A stretch of 64,000 nucleotides of DNA, from NCBI GenBank assembly GCA_000004695.1, contig CM000151.3, positions 7,584,001 through 7,648,000 of the forward strand, in the 5' to 3' direction. Positions within the stretch are counted from its first letter, which is position 1. Every line of letters starts with the position of its first letter. The notes below the pieces were generated by a model. That model saw only the letters and a list, made by a program, of their open reading frames with translations. It had not been told where the DNA came from and searched no databases. The stretch comes from Dictyostelium discoideum. Taxonomy: Eukaryota. The translations under genes and the position numbers were made by a program. Positions 4,198-14,450 of this stretch are shown in pieces.

Positions 4198-4266
4198 AGA
4201 TTAATAAATAAATAAATAAATAAATAATAAATTAATAAATTAATAAATTGATAAATTAATCAGAAA

Positions 4267-4516
4267 ATGGCAACAATCTTTGATATTTTAAATACTCTTA
4301 ATAATAATAATTTTGAAAATTGTAAAAGACAATGCTCAACCAATAAAAGCAATAAAACAATTATTGATATACTACCACCAATGGATGTAACAATTACAAA
4401 TGATAAACTAATCATTGAAACAGAGTTAGCAGGTATTTCAAAAGATCAAATTGAAATTGACATTAAAGATTCAATACTCACTATTCAAGGTGAAAGAAAA
4501 GATTTAAATAAACAAC

Positions 4517-4554
<38 letters not shown>

Positions 4555-4916
4555 TTAGTTATAGAAAAATCAACATCAACATCATCAACTTTTAGATAGA
4601 AAAGAAGATGAAGCATCAATTGAAGAAGTTTGAAGATGATATTAAACCAAAATCAAAATCTGACAACAGAACTGTATCTACTACAACCACCGCTACTAAA
4701 GAGAATAAAGAAGATGAAAATAAAACAAAATCAAGTGATAAAAAGTTTATTTCAGAAAGATCATTTGGTAATTTTAAAAGATATTTAGATTTAACAAAAG
4801 TTTTATATCAATTAGATTTATATTCAATCAATACTCAATTTGAAAATGGTTTATTAACAATTACAATCAATAAGAAATTACATTATTCAAATACAATTAA
4901 AATTAATATAAATTAA
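4267..4916 (+). pseudogene. small heat-shock protein (alpha-crystallin/Hsp20, hspG-like) copy 2, two frameshifts
   Basis: ORF 4267-4599 matches copy 1, then a 4-bp insertion (catcaACTTttagatag vs catcattagatag) and an extra A (gaagaAgtttgaa) move the frame twice. The C-terminal half (…[39 protein letters not shown]) is read in ORF 4608-4916. It is about 90% nt identical to copy 1. Confidence 0.5.
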
Positions 4917-5218
4917 CCAGTGACCACTTTTATTTTCCCTTCTTTATAATTCTGGAAATACATGTACATAATAATAAATAATAATACATTTAATAAAATA
5001 ATAAAATAAATACTTTTTGTAAAAACTTTAAAATAAATATGAAATTAATTTTTTCCTTTTTATGATTTTCTTTTTAAACTCTTTGATATGTATATATAAG
5101 TAATTATGAAAAAAATTTAAATTTATTTGATATGATTTTAAGACACGTATTAATTATAAACATCAAACTACAAATAGGGTTTTTTATTATATATATAAAA
5201 AAATTGTTGAAATTTTAT

Positions 5219-7516
5219 TTATTTGTTAATTTTTTTTAACTTGTTTAAAAGAACACTTTCACCTTTTTTACGATAAATTAAAAAACCAATTGCACCAATT
5301 GCGGAAACACCAACAACACTTGCAACTACAGCGACTGGGATAACATAACTTTTTCTTCCATCTTTTGAATTACCACATTCATTTTTAAATTCTGGACTAA
5401 TTAAGACTGAGAAATCTGGATCAATGATACAAGATTCAATGCAATGTGGTAAATCTAATGAAATTGAAATTGAATCCTTACTTTCATTTTTCATTGAAGT
5501 TAATAAATATGTTGGTCTTCCGTCTGAAACTAACTTGTTTATAAATCTTCCTTCTAAAATTTTATTATTTTTTGAAATTTTAATATAATTGAAAGTAGAT
5601 TCACCATCTTTATTATTGATTGTATTAATTGATGTATCCATTTCATTACATTCATTATCATCTGAATTTATTTGATCTACTGATGAAACTAATTCTAATT
5701 TTAAAGTATTTAAGTTATTTTTGTATGAATAGTTATAAATTCCAATACTAAATTTAATTGAACCATATTGTAAATTAAATGTTTCATCTGCAAATGTATA
5801 TTCTTTACCATTTCTGTTTGTAATTTCTTCAATCTTTGAAATAATTGAGCAATTGCTTTGAATTGTTTGAGATAATGTGTAAATAATTTCATTTTTGCTG
5901 TTTGTTGAATTTGTTGTCCAATTGTTTCGAAGAGAATATGTTGCTACTATATTACCATTAAAATCAATTTCGTATAATGATTTGAAAAAGATTTGGAATT
6001 GAACTTCTTGATTTGAAATTGTTGTATTACCAGTACCTGGATCGACACCAGTATCAGTTGGTGGGTTTCCGTTATTACCTCCATCGCTATCGCTATTGCT
6101 TCCTCCGTTATTACCTCCGCCTGGATTAATGATACCACTACAATCTGCACCATTGAATCCATTATTACATTTACATTGACCATTTAAAGTATTGCATGTA
6201 CCTTGATTTGAACATTTATTTGGACATGTTTGGTTATTAATATTTAAATATTGATATTTATCATAAGAGTATGTAATGTTATTTTGAGTTACAACTACAA
6301 GCTTTACACCAAAACCTGGAGGTGCTGTACAATTTAAAACTGTTGTTGAATTATATAGTAATGGACATGGTAAATTTCCAATTGTGATTGATAGATTATT
6401 ATGAGTATCACCAAAGAAGCCAATAAAGCTTGCAACACCACCATTGGTTGTTGAAGGTATTGTTGAAGTTATATAATGGTATGGTATTAAACAAGTTGGA
6501 CCTGACCAAGAATTTTCTTTACAATTGCATTCACCTTTAGTTGTGTCACATACACCATTTGAATTACAATCTAGTGGATCACACTCAATAAATAATATTG
6601 AACAATCACTACCTCGATGAGATGAATCACAAATACATTCACCTATGGTAGTATTGCAATAACCATTACCTGAACAATCTGGAACTGAACATTCAATACC
6701 TAAGCAATCACTACCTATAAATCCTGGTAAACATTTACAAGTACCTGAACTTAAATCGCAAATTGAATTAACTCCAACTGATGTTGAACAATCATTTGGA
6801 CAAACTTGATTATTATCGAAATTTGATTCGATCTTAATATATGCTTTTACATTGAATGAATCTTTTTCAATTGAAATTATTTGTAATGGAATTGTTGAAT
6901 TTGAAATTGGTAATTGTTTACCACTTTCCATTGTACATTGTGCTCCGAAAAAGTCACTACTTGTAATTGTTGAACAATTACCTACATTTTGAATTTGAAC
7001 TTGTTGATTTGTAAATCCTAAATAACTTGAAAAATGTGTACCACTTACTTGAATTTCATTACCTGTGCTTTTAATTAAAACTGATTTTATAATTGGTGGA
7101 ATATTATAATTTGTTGGGAATGTATATGTAACATTATTTGGAGTTGTGAATAAAACTGGAAAATATTCAACATTTTTCAAATTATTATTAGCTCCTACCA
7201 TTGTTGCTGTATAATTTTTACCATTTTGATTAATAACATATGTTGTTGGATCTAATGAAATTGTTAAATTAATTTTCCATAATGTTACATCGAATCCAAT
7301 ATCATTACCAGTTACCATTACTTTATTAAATATACCATCATTAATTAATTCTACTTTTGGTCTAAATGTTGTGCATGGTGTATTTGTATTAAAGTTTGAA
7401 AACTTATTACTAGCAAATCTTGAAAACATTGATTTTTGTGTTAATTTTGAATAACTATTTACTGTTGTTACATTAAAATAACATGCAAAACAAGATGGAA
7501 CTAATCTGAATATTTG

Positions 7517-7583
<67 letters not shown>

Positions 7584-9090
7584 ATTAATAAAAATAAGAA
7601 TTATGATAATAAAGAAATAATAATTAAAACCATACCCTGTTAAATTTCCCAGTGAAACAGCTATTTCAGTTGTGCACCATGATTTATCAATTGTGCCAGT
7701 AAATTTGGTTGTTCCTGTAAAATCAAATGAACCACCAGAACCTAAAAAAGGAGGGAATTGTTCACTTTTTATTGAATTTTGAAAATTTGTTGTAATATCT
7801 GGATTAAAATTTAGATTGTTTGGGAAAACTGTTAAATAACCTCCTATAAAGGATATTTCAATATTCTTTGGAACAATTAAGGGAAATGATCCATTGATAT
7901 TAAATGATGTCCCAGGAACCAATGTAATGGATTTATAAGTGTGGTTTTTAAATAATGTTATATCAAAGAATTCCTTTGGTTTCTTGAATATTGCTGAAAC
8001 ATATATATAAGGAATAATAGAATTATCAAATATATATTGATCTAATGTAGCATTTTGATTGAATGTATCATAGATTGTTAGCATTCCTGATTGATCAGTA
8101 ATTTGTAATTTCTTTAAAAATGAAATAGTTGAGTAATCAAATCTTGGAGAAATTTTAAATGTAACACCTCTTAATTTTTTATAACTTGATAAATCTGATA
8201 TACTATTCAAAGAAATTCTAAAATTTGTTAAGATTGATGATTCATCTGAATTTGCTCCATCTGTATTTAAATAATAATAACTATCAGATGAAAACATATT
8301 TAATGAATATGTAACTTTATCTAAATACTGCATTCTAAATATTGTATTATTTAAGTCATCGCTAAATAATTCACTTAAAATTATTTATTTTTGAAAAAAT
8401 TAAAATTATTTTAATATTATATATATATATATCTATGTATTAACATATAAAACAAAAATTATATTTTACATTAATCTATATGCAGGTAGAGGTTGTGTAA
8501 TTCCACCTAATATTCCAGAAATATTTGAATACCTTACTGTATTGGCAGCTGGAAATTTGTAATATATAAAATTTGGGGTCACTTTTAAATTTTTAACTAT
8601 TCTAAAATTATTATTTAATTACTATTAATATATTTTTTGGAATTATTTTTGACTAAAAAAAAAAAAAAAAACATACAATTCATCCATTTGAGGAAAGCAA
8701 TTTACAAAATTTAATGGGTCTAATATATTATCTGTTCCACCACTATTCAAAGCTAATCTAAAAAAAAAATAAAAAAAAAAAAAAAATAAAAAATTATTAG
8801 TTAATAATTTAAAAAAATCTAATTATTATATTTTAAATAAAAAAAATGAAATAAAAATAATTAATTTACGTTTTAATATTTAGATTGGTCGTGCAAACTA
8901 TATCAGTATTAGCGGTTGTACATATATCAACATATTGGTTATTGGTATCTTTGGTGAATTTTAAAAGGTTATAATCTTGTATCAATGTTGACAAACAATT
9001 ATATTCACTCGGAATAGGATTGACTGATAAACAACCAATAAAATTTAAAAATATTAAAAAAAGTAGTAATTTAAATTTTAACGAAATCAT
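5219..9090 (-). CDS. gene A: secreted/type-I membrane protein with IPT/TIG domain, EGF-like Cys repeats, one C-terminal TM helix and a short basic tail; 5 exons, about 1152 aa
   Basis: Exons (minus): 9090..8870 (MISLKFKLLLFLIFLNFIGCLSVNPIPSEYNC..., signal peptide; donor GTAAAT), 8757..8677 (…LALNSGGTDNILDPLNFVNCFPQMDE; donor GTATGT), 8601..8470 (…IVKNLKVTPNFIYYKFPAANTVRYSNISGILGGITQPLPAYRL; donor GTAAAA), 8373..7636 (ORF 7473-8333 region; donor GTATGG), 7505..5219 (ORF 5219-7429 extended upstream to the acceptor tattcag). All phases are consistent (2/1 across every intron). Domain calls: PPIIKSVLIKSTGNEIQVSGTHF is TIG-like; CxCxxGFxGxDC repeats are EGF-like; SYVIPVAVVASVVGVSAIGAIGFLIYRKKGE is a TM helix plus stop-transfer. 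Confidence 0.75.
7521..7581. repeat. A61 homopolymer inside intron 4 of gene A
   Basis: 61 consecutive A on the + strand. The intron runs 7635..7506. Confidence 0.95.
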
Positions 9091-9643
9091 TTTATTTGTT
9101 ATATAATGAAACGAATTAAAAAAAAAAAAAAAATCAAAAAATTTAGAAAGAAACTTGCTGAAAATGTTCATTGTTTTTTTTTCTTTTTTTTTTAAAAAAT
9201 ATCTGAAAAAATCTCCTATGTTGACGTTTTGTGTATTTTTTTTTTTTTTTTTTTCTCTGAAACAAATTGTTATTTTTTTTTTTTTTTTTAAAAACCATGT
9301 GTTTTTATTAAAGTTTTTTTTTTTTTTTTTTTTTTTTAGATATTTTCTAAAAATATCTTTTTTTTTTGACGATTTTGTTTCTGATAAGGGTGATTGGATG
9401 TACAAAAAATTTAAGCATTAAATTGGTGAAAAGTAATTTTATGTGGCTCTGGTGGGTTTGTCGCCTTTTTTTTTTTTTTTACTTTTATTTTTTTATTTTC
9501 TATGAGACTACCCTTAATTAGTTTCTGATCAGGACCTTTTTTTTAAGACACGTATTAATTATAAACATCAAACTACAAATAGGGTTTTTTATTATATATA
9601 AAAAAAAATTGATGAGAAAATTAAAAAATTGTTGAAATTTTAT

Positions 9644-12600
9644 TTATTTGTTAATTTTTTTTAACTTGTTTAAAAGAACACTTTCACCTTTTTTACGATA
9701 AATTAAAAAACCAATTGCACCAATTGCGGAAACACCAACAACACTTGCAACTACAGCGACTGGGATAACATAACTTTTTCTTCCATCTTTTGAATTACCA
9801 CATTCATTTTTAAATTCTGGACTAATTAAGACTGAGAAATCTGGATCAATGATACAAGATTCAATGCAATGTGGTAAATCTAATGAAATTGAAATTGAAT
9901 CCTTACTTTCATTTTTCATTGAAGTTATTAAATATGTTGGTCTTCCGTCTGAAACTAACTTGTTTATAAATCTTCCTTCTAAAATTTTATTATTTTTTGA
10001 AATTTTAATATAGTTGAAAGTAGATTCACCATCTTTATTATTGATTGTATTAATTGATGTATCCATTTCATTACATTCATTATCATCTGAATTTATTTGA
10101 TCTACTGATGAAACTAATTCTAATTTTAAAGTATTTAAATTATTTTTGTATGAATAGTTATGAATTCCAATACTAAATTTAATTGAACCATATTGTAAAT
10201 TAAATGTTTCATCTGCAAATGTATATTCTTTACCATTTCTGTTTGTAATTTCTTCAATCTTTGAAATAATTGAGCAATTGCTTTGAATTGTTTGAGATAA
10301 TGTGTAAATAATTTCATTTTCGGTATCTGTTGAGTTTGTTGTCCAACTGTTTTGAAGAGAATATGTTGCTACTATATTACCATTAAAATCAATTTCGTAT
10401 AATGATTTGAAAAAGATTTGGAATTGAACTTCTTGATTTGAAATTGTTGTATTACCAGTACCTGGATCGACACCAGTATCAGTTGGTGGGTTTCCGTTAT
10501 TACCTCCATCGCTATCGCTATTGCTTCCTCCGTTATTACCTCCGCCTGGATTAATGATACCACTACAATCTGCACCATTGAATCCATTATTACATTTACA
10601 TTGACCATTTAAAGTATTGCATGTACCTTGATTTGAACATTTATTTGGACATGTTTGATTGTTAATATTTAAATATTGATATTTATTATAAGAGTATGTA
10701 ATGTTATTTTGAGCTACAACTACAAGCTTTACACCAAAACCTGGAGGTGCTGTACAATTTAAAACTGTTGTTGAATTATATAGTAATGGACATGGTAAAT
10801 TTCCAATTGTGATTGATAGATTATTATGAGTATCACCAAAGAAGCCAATAAAGCTTGCAACACCACCATTGGTTGTTGAAGGTATTGTTGAAGTTATATA
10901 ATGGTATGGTATTAAACAAGTTGGACCTGACCAAGAATTTTCTTTACAATTGCATTCACCTTTAATTGTATCACACACACCGTTTGAATTACAATCTACT
11001 GGATCACAATCAATATATGGTAATGAACAGTCACTACCTTGATTTGAAGGTCCACAATCACAAGTACCAGTTTGATTATTACATGTATTTAAACCACCAT
11101 TACATGCTACCCCAGTAGTCATTGGACATTCAACAAATGGTACTGAGCAATCATTTCCTTGGTGAGATGAATCACAATTACAAATACCAGTTTCATTATT
11201 ACATGTATTTAAACCACCATTGCATGGTAATCCATTAGATTCTGGACAATCAATTACTGGTAATGAGCAATCACTTCCTTGGTGAGATGAATCACAATTA
11301 CAAGTACCAGTTTGATTATTACATGTATTTAAACCACCATTACATGGCAATCCATTAGATGTTGGGCAATCAATTACTGGCAATGAGCAATCACTACCTT
11401 GATTTGAAGGTCCACAATCACAAGTACCAGTTTGATTATTACATGTATTTAAACCACCGTTACATGGTAATGAACTGAATATTGGACATGGAACCAATGG
11501 CAATGAGCAATTACTTCCTTGAAACGATGAGCTACAATTACAAGTACCAGTTTGGTTATTACATGTATTTAAACCACCGTTACATGGTAATCCACTAACT
11601 ATTGGGCATTCAATCAATGGTAATGAGCAATCACTTCCTTGGTGAGATGAATCACAACCACAAGTACCAGTTTGATTATTACAAGTGTTTAGACCGCCGT
11701 TACATGGTAATCCACTAACAATTGGGCATTCAATCAATGGTAATGAGCAATCATTTCCTTGGTGAGATGAATCACAACCACAAGTACCAGTTTTATTATT
11801 ACAAGTGTTTAAACCACCGTTACATGGTAATCCACTAACTATTGGGCATTCAATCAATGGTAATGAGCAATCATTTCCTTGGTGAGATGAATCACAAGTA
11901 CAAATACCAGTTTGATTATTACAAGTATTTGAGCCGCCATTACATGGTAAAGAGCCATAAATTGGACAAGGAATGAGTGGTAATAAACAATCGCTACCTT
12001 GATAAGATGAATTACAAATACATTCACCTATGGTATAATCACAATGACCATTACCTGAACAATCTGGAACTGAACATTCAATACCTAAACAATCACTACC
12101 AACAAATCCTGGTAAACATTTACAAGCACCTGAACTTAAATCGCAAATTGAATTAACTCCAACTGATGTTGAACAATCATTTGGACAAACTTGATTATTA
12201 TCGAAATTTGATTCGATCTTAATATATGCTTTTACATTGAATGAATCTTTTTCAATTGAAATTATTTGTAATGGAATTGTTGAATTTGAAATTGGTAATT
12301 GTTTACCACTTTCCATTGTACATTGTGCTCCGAAAAAGTCACTACTTGTAATTGTTGAACAATTACCTACATTTTGAATTTGAACTTGTTGATTTGTAAA
12401 TCCTAAATAACTTGAAAAATGTGTACCACTTACTTGAATTTCATTACCTGTGCTTTTAATTAAAACTGATTTTATAATTGGTGGAATATTATAATTTGTT
12501 GGGAATGTATATGTAACATTATTTGGAGTTGTGAATAAAACTGGAAAATATTCAACATTTTTCAAATTATTATTAGCTCCTACCATTGTTGCTGTATAAT

Positions 12601-14450
12601 TTTTACCATTTTGATTAATAACATATGTTGTTGGATCTAATGAAATTGTTAAATTAATTTTCCATAATGTTACATCGAATCCAATATCATTACCAGTTAC
12701 CATTACTTTATTAAATATACCATCATTAATTAATTCTACTTTTGGTCTAAATGTTGTGCATGGTGTTTTTGTATTAAAGTTTGAAAACTTATTACCAGAA
12801 AATCTTGTCAACATTGATTTTTGTGTTAATTTTGAATAACTATTTATCGTTGTTACATTAAAATAACACGCAAAACAAGATGGAATTAATCTAAATTTTT
12901 AAATTAATAAAAAAAAATAAAGATTAGTAAGTAATTTGAATAAATAAATAATTTATAATCAACATACCCTGTTAAATTTCCAGTTGGGACAGATAGTTCA
13001 GTTGTGCACCATGAATTATCAACTGTACCAACAAAAAGATTTGGAGAATTTGTAAAATAATATGAACCACCAGAACCTAGAAATTTTGTGGGGAATTGTG
13101 TATTTTTTATTGAATTAAAGAAGGAAACTGTAGAATATGGACCCATATTAAGGTTATTTGGAAAAACCGTCAAGTTACCTGATAAAAAATTAAAATCACA
13201 ACTCTCTGGAGGAATTATTGGGAGTGCCCCATTCAAATGATAAAGATTTCCTGGAAAAAGGGTAATTGCTGTATAGGTGTGATTAACGAATGATGACATA
13301 TCATAATATTCAGTTGGTGCATCAAGTGTCGCACTTAGATAAAATTTTGATACTTTTGAATTGTCAAATAAATATTGATTAATTTGTCCAAGAGCACGGT
13401 ATATTGATAATTGATTGGATGATATTGTTTTCATAAAATTAATAGTTGAAAAATCAAATATTAGAGAAAATTGTAAATTTATATTGTTTAATTTGTACAT
13501 TGAAAAAGATACTATGTTATGTACATTGGCATAAAAATTCCCTAATACTGAGGTTCCAGATGGATTTGCGCCATCAGAGTTTAGATAAACATATACATTA
13601 GCAGGAGAAATGTCCAAATTATATATTCCACTATTAATATGCTCCAATCTCAATGTTGTACCATTTAAATCATTTGAATGTATAGTCCTTTTTATTTTTA
13701 AAATAAAAAAAAATAAAAAAAATAAAAAAAATAAAAAAATAAATAAATGAATAAAATTTATGTAAGAAATAAGAATTAGATTTTAGTTTTTTTTTTTTTT
13801 TTGTTTTTTTTTTTTTTATAGAAAATAAATATTTACAAGGATCTAATTGAAGGTAAAGGTTGAGTAATTCCACCTACCACTCCATTAATATTGATATACT
13901 TTGCTATTTGGACACTGGATATTTTTGTATATATAAAATCTGGTGATACTTTTAAATTATTAACCGTTCTTTAATAATAATAATTTTCAATTTTTTAGTA
14001 AATAATTTTGTTGAGAAAAAAAAAAAAAAAAAATTTAAAATACTTACAATTCCACCATCAGAGTAAAACAGGTTGAGAAATTAGATGGAAATAATATATT
14101 ATTTGTACCACCAGGTATTAAAAACCATCCTAAAAATAAAAAAATAAAAAAATAAAAATTTAATATTTATTAGTTTTGATATTAAATTAAAAAAAAAAAT
14201 TAAAAAATTAAAAAATTAAAATTAAACTTATTTCTTTTGAATATAAATTCCCAGAACAAGAAATATCAATTGTGGTGGTTGACAAATGTTTGAATAAAAA
14301 TCGAATGTGTCTTTTGTGAAATTTGGTAGAATAAAAATTTCATTTAAATAACCAACACGTATATTCATCTGGAACAAGAGGGGGGACTTGAGAATAACAC
14401 CCGACAATTATTAAAAATATAAAAAAAAGTTGAGATTTAATTAAAACCAT
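9644..14450 (-). CDS. gene B: tandem paralog of gene A (IPT/TIG + EGF-like repeat type-I membrane protein) with an expanded Cys-repeat array; 5' exon 1 appears decayed
   Basis: Exons (minus): 12890..9644 (1082 codons; ORF 9644-12814 extended to the acceptor aaatttag), 13687..12968 (donor GTATGT), 13968..13837 (…TVNNLKVSPDFIYTKISSVQIAKYININGVVGGITQPLPSIRSL; donor GTAAAT), 14129..14048 (GWFLIPGGTNNILFPSNFSTCFTLMVE; donor GTAAGT). Putative exon 1 is 14450..about 14235 (MVLIKSQLFFIFLIIVGCYSQVPPLVPDEYTCW...). Exon 1 has an in-frame TGA, a frameshift relative to gene A, no recognisable GT donor (GAAATAAGTTTAA where A has CGTAAATTAAT), and a phase mismatch with exon 2 (82 nt vs 81 nt in A). Confidence 0.6.
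11000..12000 (-). repeat. in-frame 120-bp (40-aa) tandem repeat array, about 8 copies, encoding CDSSHQG(N/S)DCSLPLIECPIVSGLPCNGGLNTCNNQTGTC units
   Basis: Consecutive copies are 90-100% identical at the nt level (e.g. 11161-11280 vs 11281-11400). The array is absent from gene A, which jumps from CICDSSHRGSDCSILFIECDPLDCNSNG directly to the shared C-terminal region. Confidence 0.85.

Follow-up and report, generated by a model that had tools for sequence, protein, structure and literature searches.

The window analysed here is a 64,000-nucleotide (nt) stretch of the Dictyostelium discoideum genome (assembly GCA_000004695.1, contig CM000151.3, positions 7,584,001 to 7,648,000 of the forward strand; coordinates below count from its first letter). 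Its minus strand carries two neighbouring genes, termed A and B, and the subject of this analysis is a tandem array of units resembling the epidermal growth factor (EGF) domain that is present in B and missing from A. Gene B is a 100% match to ACTFIT_004673 of D. discoideum (1465 amino acids, aa), whose cluster contains AX4 DDB_G0277127. Gene A is DDB_G0276959, and its protein is identical in AX4 and in the window strain. Both genes carry the full ComC set of Pfam domains in order, namely LRR_ComC (a leucine-rich repeat, LRR, head), the first and second Beta-sand_ComC, EGFs, TIG and the ComC supersandwich, together with a signal peptide, a transmembrane helix and a short basic tail. E-values for gene B are 6e-28 (PF24141), 1.7e-24 (PF24142), 1.5e-23 (PF24143) and 1.4e-79 (PF22933), and those for gene A are similar. 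Judged by sequence, gene B is a predicted ComC-family type I membrane protein with a signal peptide and the ortholog of DDB_G0277127.

The array lies on the minus strand within a 1056-aa open reading frame (ORF) at 9644-12814 (gene B), and the whole of it sits inside a single exon, the last one. Tandem Repeats Finder (TRF) reported one long-period tandem array at 11010-11950 (period 120, 7.8 copies, 86% matches, 0% indels, score 1203), and a second repeat search found eight copies spaced exactly 120 nt. Both agree with the in-frame array of 8 x 120 bp given for gene B in the original prediction. In a TRF scan of the 64-kb window at a score threshold of 250, this was the sole long-period tandem repeat; the next matches were AT-rich microsatellites scoring at most 398. 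The collinear gene A ORF (5219-7429) encodes 736 aa and the B ORF is longer by exactly 320 aa, or 8 x 40, which is the ectodomain difference of about 320 residues that had been predicted. As also predicted, the array is in B and not in A (8 units against 0 long units). The units and the EGFs beside them are as follows.

11057..12016, minus strand, eight-unit array of gene B, 120 bp and 40 EGF-like aa per unit, mapped in the C-D-S-S-H register
11897-12016, minus strand, unit 0 (same register throughout)
11777-11896, minus strand, unit 1
11657-11776, minus strand, unit 2
11537-11656, minus strand, unit 3
11417-11536, minus strand, unit 4
11297-11416, minus strand, unit 5
11177-11296, minus strand, unit 6
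11057-11176, minus strand, unit 7
11987..12076, minus strand, short-type EGF N-terminal to the array (CSVPDCSGNGHCDYTIGECICNSSYQGSDC), from translation; also in gene A; its 3' part is the upstream divergence shoulder, A/B identity dropping to 86-92% over the final 100 nt ahead of the array
10916..11008, minus strand, short-type EGF C-terminal to the array (CDPVDCNSNGVCDTIKGECNCKENSWSGPTC), from translation; common to gene A, with 64/69 nt matching A's copy

In the EGF-domain register the eight domains cover 11009-11968.

Translation of the units confirmed the 40-aa consensus peptide of the original prediction, but not its count of eight Cys per 40 aa; the 320 aa hold 48 Cys, six per unit, at positions 1, 10, 17, 25, 32 and 39. 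With the Cys at position 17 taken as its start, the unit makes up one whole EGF-like domain, C-x7-C-x6-C-x6-C-x-C-x8-C, with a linker of six residues behind it. The EGF_1 pattern of PROSITE, C-x-C-x5-G-x2-C, is found in all units, every 40 residues (ORF aa 305, 345 ... 585), and all 61 units from eight genomes retain the six Cys. A three-unit segment matched Pfam EGF_2 (PF07974) at 40.2 bits against a cutoff of 22.1 (E 4.4e-10, three stretches, one per unit); a single unit alone reached 20.2 bits, slightly under the cutoff, and weaker matches to EGF_TEN and EGF_Tenascin were obtained as well. The EGF-like part of the earlier assignment therefore stands. The laminin part does not, as laminin-type EGF (PF00053), defined by eight Cys in about 50-60 aa, remained below cutoff on the array segment (19.5 against 21 bits); the PF00053 match on the whole gene B protein sits at aa 213-242, outside the array. 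The calcium-binding EGF signature (PROSITE PS01187, [DEQN]-x-[DEQN](2)-C ... C-x-[DN]-x(4)-[FY]-x-C) was absent throughout the gene B ORF. A match of Plasmod_MYXSPDY (PF07981) on the unit linkers (window 11609-11968, 24.1 bits against a cutoff of 21.1) is almost certainly a spurious short-motif match and was treated as such.

A PDB sequence search with the three-unit segment gave no match at E up to 1. Structure prediction of the unit, which the original prediction had proposed, was run on three units with AlphaFold2 (AF2). A 21-row alignment of three-unit segments from homologs yielded one usable model in five, with a predicted local distance difference test (pLDDT) score of 70.6 and short beta-hairpins recurring every 40 residues. 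Foldseek comparison of this model with the PDB returned almost only tandem EGFs (E 3e-5 to about 1e-2, with probabilities mostly close to 1.00), including Notch1 EGF8-12, 4-7, 20-24 and 11-13, Del-1, SCARF1 and integrin-beta I-EGF; the top 17 matches all came from the tandem EGFs in Notch and Del-1 structures, at probability 0.97-1.00 and E 3e-5 to 4e-3. The predicted model and its structural matches lend tentative support to an EGF fold of the unit; the 1-3, 2-4, 5-6 disulfide pairing of that fold is not readable from the model.

Genes A and B were compared along their length in a sliding nt profile. Identity is 56-69% over the LRR exon and jumps to 99-100% near the start of the last exon. 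It falls to 96% and then 86% over the 200 nt before the array, is 90% right after it, and is then mostly 98-100% (one 100-nt bin, 93%) to about 80-100 nt past the stop codon, beyond which the two sequences are unrelated. The description of A and B as otherwise homogenised paralogs thus covers no more than the last exon and the roughly 80 nt that follow the stop, and fails for the LRR exon. Two stretches of B stand out as conversion tracts.

12074..12873, minus strand, upstream conversion tract in B, paired with A 6689-7488; 96-100% identity, 93% in the first 100-nt bin; synonymous divergence (dS) 0.007; strain-wise clustering
9541..10973, minus strand, downstream conversion tract in B, paired with A 5136-6548; mostly 98-100% identity, one bin 93%; dS 0.022; strain-wise clustering; also picked up by the repeat search as shared repeat families

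In trees of the LRR region, the A orthologs form one group with a third tandem paralog (C) and D. firmibasis (82% bootstrap), and the B orthologs form another with D. citrinum (94%). In the two regions flanking the array, the A and B copies of one strain generally come out as sisters, with 57-100% support where resolved; in the assembly holding paralog C (FIZ) the A, B and C copies form a clade with 100% and 95% support in the two regions, and two strains are not cleanly resolved in one flanking region each. The LRR region groups by ortholog but the last exon by strain, which indicates repeated gene conversion in the latter. The LRR heads of A and B separated ahead of the splits that led to D. 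citrinum and D. firmibasis, which makes the two genes old paralogs. In an ungapped A/B comparison of five lineages, identity dipped in every one: the last 100 nt ahead of the array match at 87-94% and the first 100 nt behind it at 82-86%. Bins of very low identity at a distance from the array were discarded from this comparison, being indel frame-shifts and not real divergence. On both sides of the array the conversion tracts seem to stop some 100 bp short of it, and therefore only the head and the stalk length stay different between the two genes.

The array had been described as young, with nearly identical units differing by a handful of substitutions. Pairwise nt identity between units is 72.5-96.7%; only units 1-3 are mutually 92-97% identical, and the remaining pairs differ at 14-33 of 120 nt. 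Unit-to-unit dS is lowest, at 0.12, for unit 1 against units 2 and 3, and exceeds 1 where unit 0 is compared with the others, against A/B flank values of 0.007 before the array and 0.022 after it. For most pairs (73-88% identical, dS 0.2 to more than 1) the unit dS is thus 10-100 times that of the flanks. A bootstrapped neighbour-joining (NJ) tree was built from the 61 units of the eight genomes, and in it the units cluster largely by position and not by genome (position-0 clade 96%, last-position clade 90%). Position 1 is marked by a 'KDCPTY' type, supported at 96%, whose sister group is formed by the odd-numbered units of D. citrinum. Six of the eight window units find their best match in another lineage (92-95%) rather than in their own array (77-88%), and unit 3 ties at 94.2%. 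The sole clearly lineage-specific duplicate pair is the following.

11657..11896, minus strand, units 1 and 2; 96.7% nt identity, dS 0.12, mutual best match, sisters with 78% bootstrap

The 'KDCPTY'-type unit, which occupies position 1 in other lineages, is missing from the window array. Units 1 and 2 being mutual best matches and the position-1 type being missing, the AX lineage has therefore lost one unit and duplicated another. By these sequence comparisons, most window units predate the split of the discoideum-clade lineages, and the array is old; neither 'nearly identical' nor 'recent' describes it, given the dS values, the positional orthology and the seven units at the D. citrinum gene.

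That description implied a recent amplification in gene B alone, out of the flanking EGFs, after A and B had become near-identical, and it has some footing in the 92-97% identity of units 1-3 and in an array missing from A while the A/B flanks are about 98% identical. However, the flank near-identity stems from gene conversion and not from recent duplication, because the flank trees group by strain, and most unit pairs exceed the flank dS by one to two orders of magnitude. Units correspond by position from lineage to lineage, seven of them are present in the syntenic gene of D. citrinum, and the same module occurs in other paralogs. The first half of the long unit (CP....LPCNGG.NTCNNQTG.C) moreover has no counterpart in the flanking short EGFs. 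A young array is accordingly very improbable indeed. The case carries a practical caution: near-identity of paralog flanks does not date the repeat embedded in them.

Long units were counted in the genes related to A and B, as listed here.

B orthologs in AX4, the window strain and two 'cf. discoideum' assemblies: 8 long units each
B orthologs in two other D. discoideum assemblies: 10 long units each, with a di-unit and another unit duplicated
Syntenic gene in two D. citrinum assemblies: 7 long units each, with a 240-bp super-period
Third tandem paralog (C), in one assembly only: 2 long units
D. firmibasis syntenic gene: 1 long unit
Gene A orthologs, all five lineages: 0 long units

Gene order is conserved as FA_hydroxylase - B - A - (C) - HSP20, with a single ComC gene at the syntenic site in D. 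citrinum and in D. firmibasis. The array length is thus variable between lineages, as had been predicted, with 7, 8 or 10 units among orthologs. The array has the features of a coding repeat, with a period that is a multiple of 3, 0% indels and a different copy number in homologs. In the D. citrinum arrays the 240-bp super-period spans two units (units 0/2/4 vs 1/3/5), which points to a di-unit amplification independent of the discoideum-clade events. The same 40-aa module occurs in arrays of 11, 16 and 5 in a second ComC paralog group of three discoideum-clade assemblies (including ACTFIT_005258, at another locus of the window strain), a wider range of copy number than at the locus studied, and D. 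firmibasis tandem paralogs have arrays of 6, 8 and 10 of a 41-aa variant. Since arrays are found in other ComC paralogs, the module is a trait of the family, and so is the variability of its copy number.

Neighbouring genes are 88-94% nt identical between the window strain and other discoideum-clade assemblies, that is, 6-12% diverged. The difference of 8 vs 10 is therefore one between well-diverged lineages. According to PMC12745789, AX2 nevertheless forms macrocysts with CR116C and OT3A. The locus was also considered as a polymorphism hotspot like tgrB1/C1 and rejected as such, the neighbouring genes being equally diverged (88-94% nt).

The original prediction had named an assembly collapse or expansion as what would overturn it, and tandem repeats are a known source of assembly error, a general point with nothing specific to this array. 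However, no two units differ by fewer than 4 nt, and most differ by 14-33 nt, and the units are therefore uniquely placeable in an assembly. The Sanger-derived AX4 protein and the independent assembly of the window strain share an identical 8-unit array, a comparison made at the protein level for AX4; independent assembly pairs agree with each other (10 and 10, 7 and 7); and the frame is intact, with 0 indels. The assemblies tagged ACTFI appear to stem from a study of AX2, CR116C, OT3A, M4B, S6B and citrinum-clade isolates, and were built from Nanopore long reads plus Illumina data (PMC12745789). Given its identity to AX4, the window strain is presumably AX2. The probability that the array is such an artefact is close to nil.

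At the place in gene A where the array of B would sit, the following feature is found.

6581..6631, minus strand, gene A junction half-unit (CDSSHRGSDCSILFIEC), present in all five A orthologs

The half-unit directly precedes the distal short EGF and matches the equivalent part of any B unit at 38-41/51 nt. The two EGFs of gene A are of a short subtype, C-x3-C-x5-C-x6-C-x-C-x8-C, and gene B has both of them, flanking its array. They had been taken for two degenerate copies of the long unit, but they belong to a different EGF subtype that is also in B and, at 44-56% identity to the long unit in register, are not decayed long units. The prediction of an expansion in B only is likewise right in that long units are in B and none are in A, and is not upheld as to polarity, since all relatives except A have at least one long unit. 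These include the A-side genes (D. firmibasis, 1; paralog C, 2), and the empty state of A is therefore most simply an old loss. The most parsimonious history would be an ancient loss in the A lineage together with an ancient expansion in the B lineage. The dips in all five lineages and the diverged A junction indicate, therefore, a copy-number difference of long standing that repeated homogenisation has not erased.

A recent deletion in gene A, by which a B-like array was lost in one unequal crossover between its first and last units, would account for the hybrid-looking single half-unit abutting the distal short EGF and for the long units in all other relatives. It would also predict a junction close in sequence to the present B units, and the match is only 38-41/51 nt to any of them. 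Moreover, the same empty state and junction sequence recur in five lineages that are 6-12% diverged in neighbouring DNA, and the shoulders beside the junction are A-specific in every lineage. Such a deletion is therefore highly improbable; it is likely that an ancient loss in the A lineage, and not a recent one, is part of the explanation.

Across the 61 units the six Cys, Q6, G27, N30, N34, T36 and G37 are kept, as is an N-x-T sequon at 34-36 with a variable middle residue. The variation between units is concentrated in the loops at positions 14-16 and 19-22. The ratio of nonsynonymous to synonymous divergence (dN/dS) for orthologous whole units is 0.15-0.35; it is 0.10-0.24 in the scaffold and 0.5-1.35 at the loop positions, the last from 2-5 synonymous and 9-17 nonsynonymous changes. 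This pattern would fit a folded, glycosylated structural module with tolerant loops. The array is placed between the LRR/beta-sandwich head and the membrane-proximal TIG/supersandwich, where it may act as a spacer setting the projection of the head. EGF domains are, as a rough textbook figure, about 2.5-3 nm long each, and as a glycosylated spacer the array could hold the LRR head of B roughly 20 nm further from the membrane than that of A.

Out-of-register recombination or replication slippage between units could add or remove whole domains with frame and fold intact. With a period of 120 bp (3 x 40 codons) and one folding domain per unit, gain or loss would be of whole domains and in frame. 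Events consistent with out-of-register change are the single-unit duplication and loss in the AX lineage, the di-unit duplication in two strains and the di-unit amplification in D. citrinum; the edge units are the most stable across lineages. Taken together, the array is probably an old, variable-length EGF stalk of a ComC protein which changes by out-of-register recombination, and whose flanks are homogenised by gene conversion.

Several points weigh against this interpretation of the stalk. Its polarity rests on parsimony, few taxa and NJ trees, and the decisive last-exon sequence has been overwritten by conversion; the grouping of D. firmibasis with the A/C clade has 82% bootstrap by NJ, and deeper nodes are weak (63%). 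For polymorphism within populations, the 8 vs 10 difference compares only lineages about 6-12% diverged. The 960-bp heterology may stop the tracts mechanically at the array, or selection may remove the products of conversion there, two causes that the data do not separate. The putative spacer role and the distance of about 20 nm are deduced from the domain type. As for the fold, AF2 with a 6-row alignment of three units from the window only gave a mean pLDDT of 42 and was unusable, and the other four of the five models from the larger alignment were poor. Confidence in the structure model is accordingly moderate. Its global TM-scores against solved structures are also low, at 0.3-0.47, which we attribute to the different inter-domain angles of multi-domain rods.

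The contrast between variable loops and an invariant scaffold, with loop dN/dS well above that of the scaffold, is also what would be expected if the array were a recognition surface, its loops binding partners and unit turnover diversifying specificity as in polymorphic adhesins. Tandem EGFs of Notch and its ligands do bind, and the top Foldseek matches are Notch-ligand complexes. The loop estimates, however, come from so few changes that they are indistinguishable from relaxed constraint. Whole-unit dN/dS is low (0.15-0.35), neighbouring genes show as much divergence between lineages as this locus does, and the LRR head is the more obvious binding module. A recognition role is thus unlikely, though it keeps some plausibility. 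More doubtful is an extension of the stalk interpretation in which the array is a selected 'height setting' that co-varies with the LRR head (B-type, 7-10 EGFs; A/C-type, 0-2), with the 960-bp difference itself a barrier to conversion tracts. If this were true, tandem adhesion/receptor genes would share a homogenised membrane-proximal module while keeping two reaches and specificities, and stalk length would be a functional, evolvable parameter of cell-cell contact in aggregative multicellularity.

A tandem EGF stalk with drifting copy number is in itself a familiar, ordinary feature class in an annotated family. Other ComC members share the 40-aa EGF module in arrays of 5-16, and the EGF copy number ranges from 0 to 16 across the family. 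The EGF stalks of metazoan proteins (Notch, Delta/Jagged, Del-1, SCARF1, integrin-beta I-EGF, tenascin, teneurin) are alike in six-Cys spacing and head-to-tail domains; the array here differs from them in having no calcium-binding signature and in lying in one exon rather than one exon per domain. Its units are also far more alike (72-97% nt) than the EGFs of Notch, and the likeness is one of domain type, with no claim on orthology or signalling. LPA kringle IV-2, yeast FLO adhesins and mucins are surface proteins with coding tandem-repeat copy-number variation. They resemble the present case in having in-frame units that vary between lineages, interior turnover and stable edges, presumably by unequal recombination. 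The variation here is, however, modest (7-10) and between diverged lineages, and its units, being old, can each be told apart instead of being near-identical.

Tandem paralogs that evolve partly in concert while a specificity region stays protected are described for mammalian TLR1/TLR6 (PMC2077338), and long-lived converted gene pairs are known as well (PMC2720389). As in those accounts, the A and B paralogs are closer within a genome than orthologs between genomes over part of their length, with sharp tract ends and a region escaping. Unlike in those cases, two regions escape in A/B, the LRR head and an internal 960-bp length difference that splits the converted region and has shoulders at its edges. 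The locus thereby adds a clean natural example of mosaic paralog evolution in Dictyostelium, in which head and stalk length are distinct and the rest of the last exon is overwritten, and the distinctness of A and B has held across lineages including possible cryptic species.

ComC-family proteins are restricted to group-4 dictyostelids (PMC4931340). comC, the founding member, is the gene of a communication mutant (Kibler et al. 2003, as cited in PMC2873529); it is group-4-restricted and developmentally essential, has EGF domains, is marked as secreted and transmembrane, and shows an aberrant-aggregation phenotype (PMC4931340; PMC2873529). A and B are paralogs of comC and not comC itself. Given the group-4 restriction and a founding member needed for normal aggregation (PMC4931340, PMC2873529), the A/B paralogs therefore offer a ready series of 0, 2, 8 and 10 EGFs for tests of the part that ectodomain length may play in communication between cells. 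Both genes are already in databases as hypothetical EGF-like proteins. In the library searched, no paper mentions either gene, and searches on ComC together with EGF, and on gene conversion or EGF copy-number variation in Dictyostelium, turned up no earlier description of the feature.

The third tandem paralog is ACTFIZ_010430, from a 'cf. discoideum' assembly (locus L002, 19662-23667), whose LRR head resembles that of A and which has two long EGF units. The second of these clusters with the final unit of gene B from the same strain (94% bootstrap), which suggests conversion inside the array region as well. In another assembly (ACTFIW, L007 11790-15676), gene A is annotated at 1036 aa with internal gaps in the supersandwich region, which could point to a pseudogene, to a deletion allele or to faulty annotation.

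The exons of the two genes in the window are as follows.

9647..12889, minus strand, gene B last exon, aa 385-1465 (stop codon 9644-9646), from exon mapping, Pfam and the 100% identity match; its order is two ComC beta-sandwiches, EGFs plus array, TIG, EGF, Gly/Asn/Ser-rich linker, ComC supersandwich, transmembrane helix and short tail
12967..13686, minus strand, gene B exon with most of the LRR_ComC head, aa 145-384, from exon mapping and Pfam; 56-69% nt identity to A
13836..14450, minus strand, small 5' exons of gene B (14361-14450, 14047-14112, 13836-13967) with the signal peptide and the LRR start, from exon mapping; aa 31-78 unmapped
5222..7504, minus strand, gene A last exon, aa 392-1152, from exon mapping; same architecture as the last exon of B, with no long EGF units
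7635..9090, minus strand, 5' exons of gene A (8869-9090, 8676-8756, 8472-8600, 7635-8372) with the signal peptide and LRR_ComC head, from exon mapping and Pfam LRR_ComC

The AX4 model DDB_G0277127 (1387 aa) is about 78 residues shorter near the N-terminus than ACTFIT_004673 (1465 aa), which corresponds to about 14047-14450 in the window. The shortfall seems to come from how the small 5' exons were annotated and not from the sequence; the EGF array of the AX4 protein is identical to that of the window. A 61-nt pure poly(A) run at 7521-7581 lies in the intron ahead of the last exon of gene A, near the upstream boundary of the A/B conversion tract. Beside gene A, the HSP20 small heat-shock genes are tandemly duplicated (about 4200-5138 and about 1012-1985), and the syntenic site has one HSP20 gene in D. 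firmibasis and two and five in the two D. citrinum assemblies.

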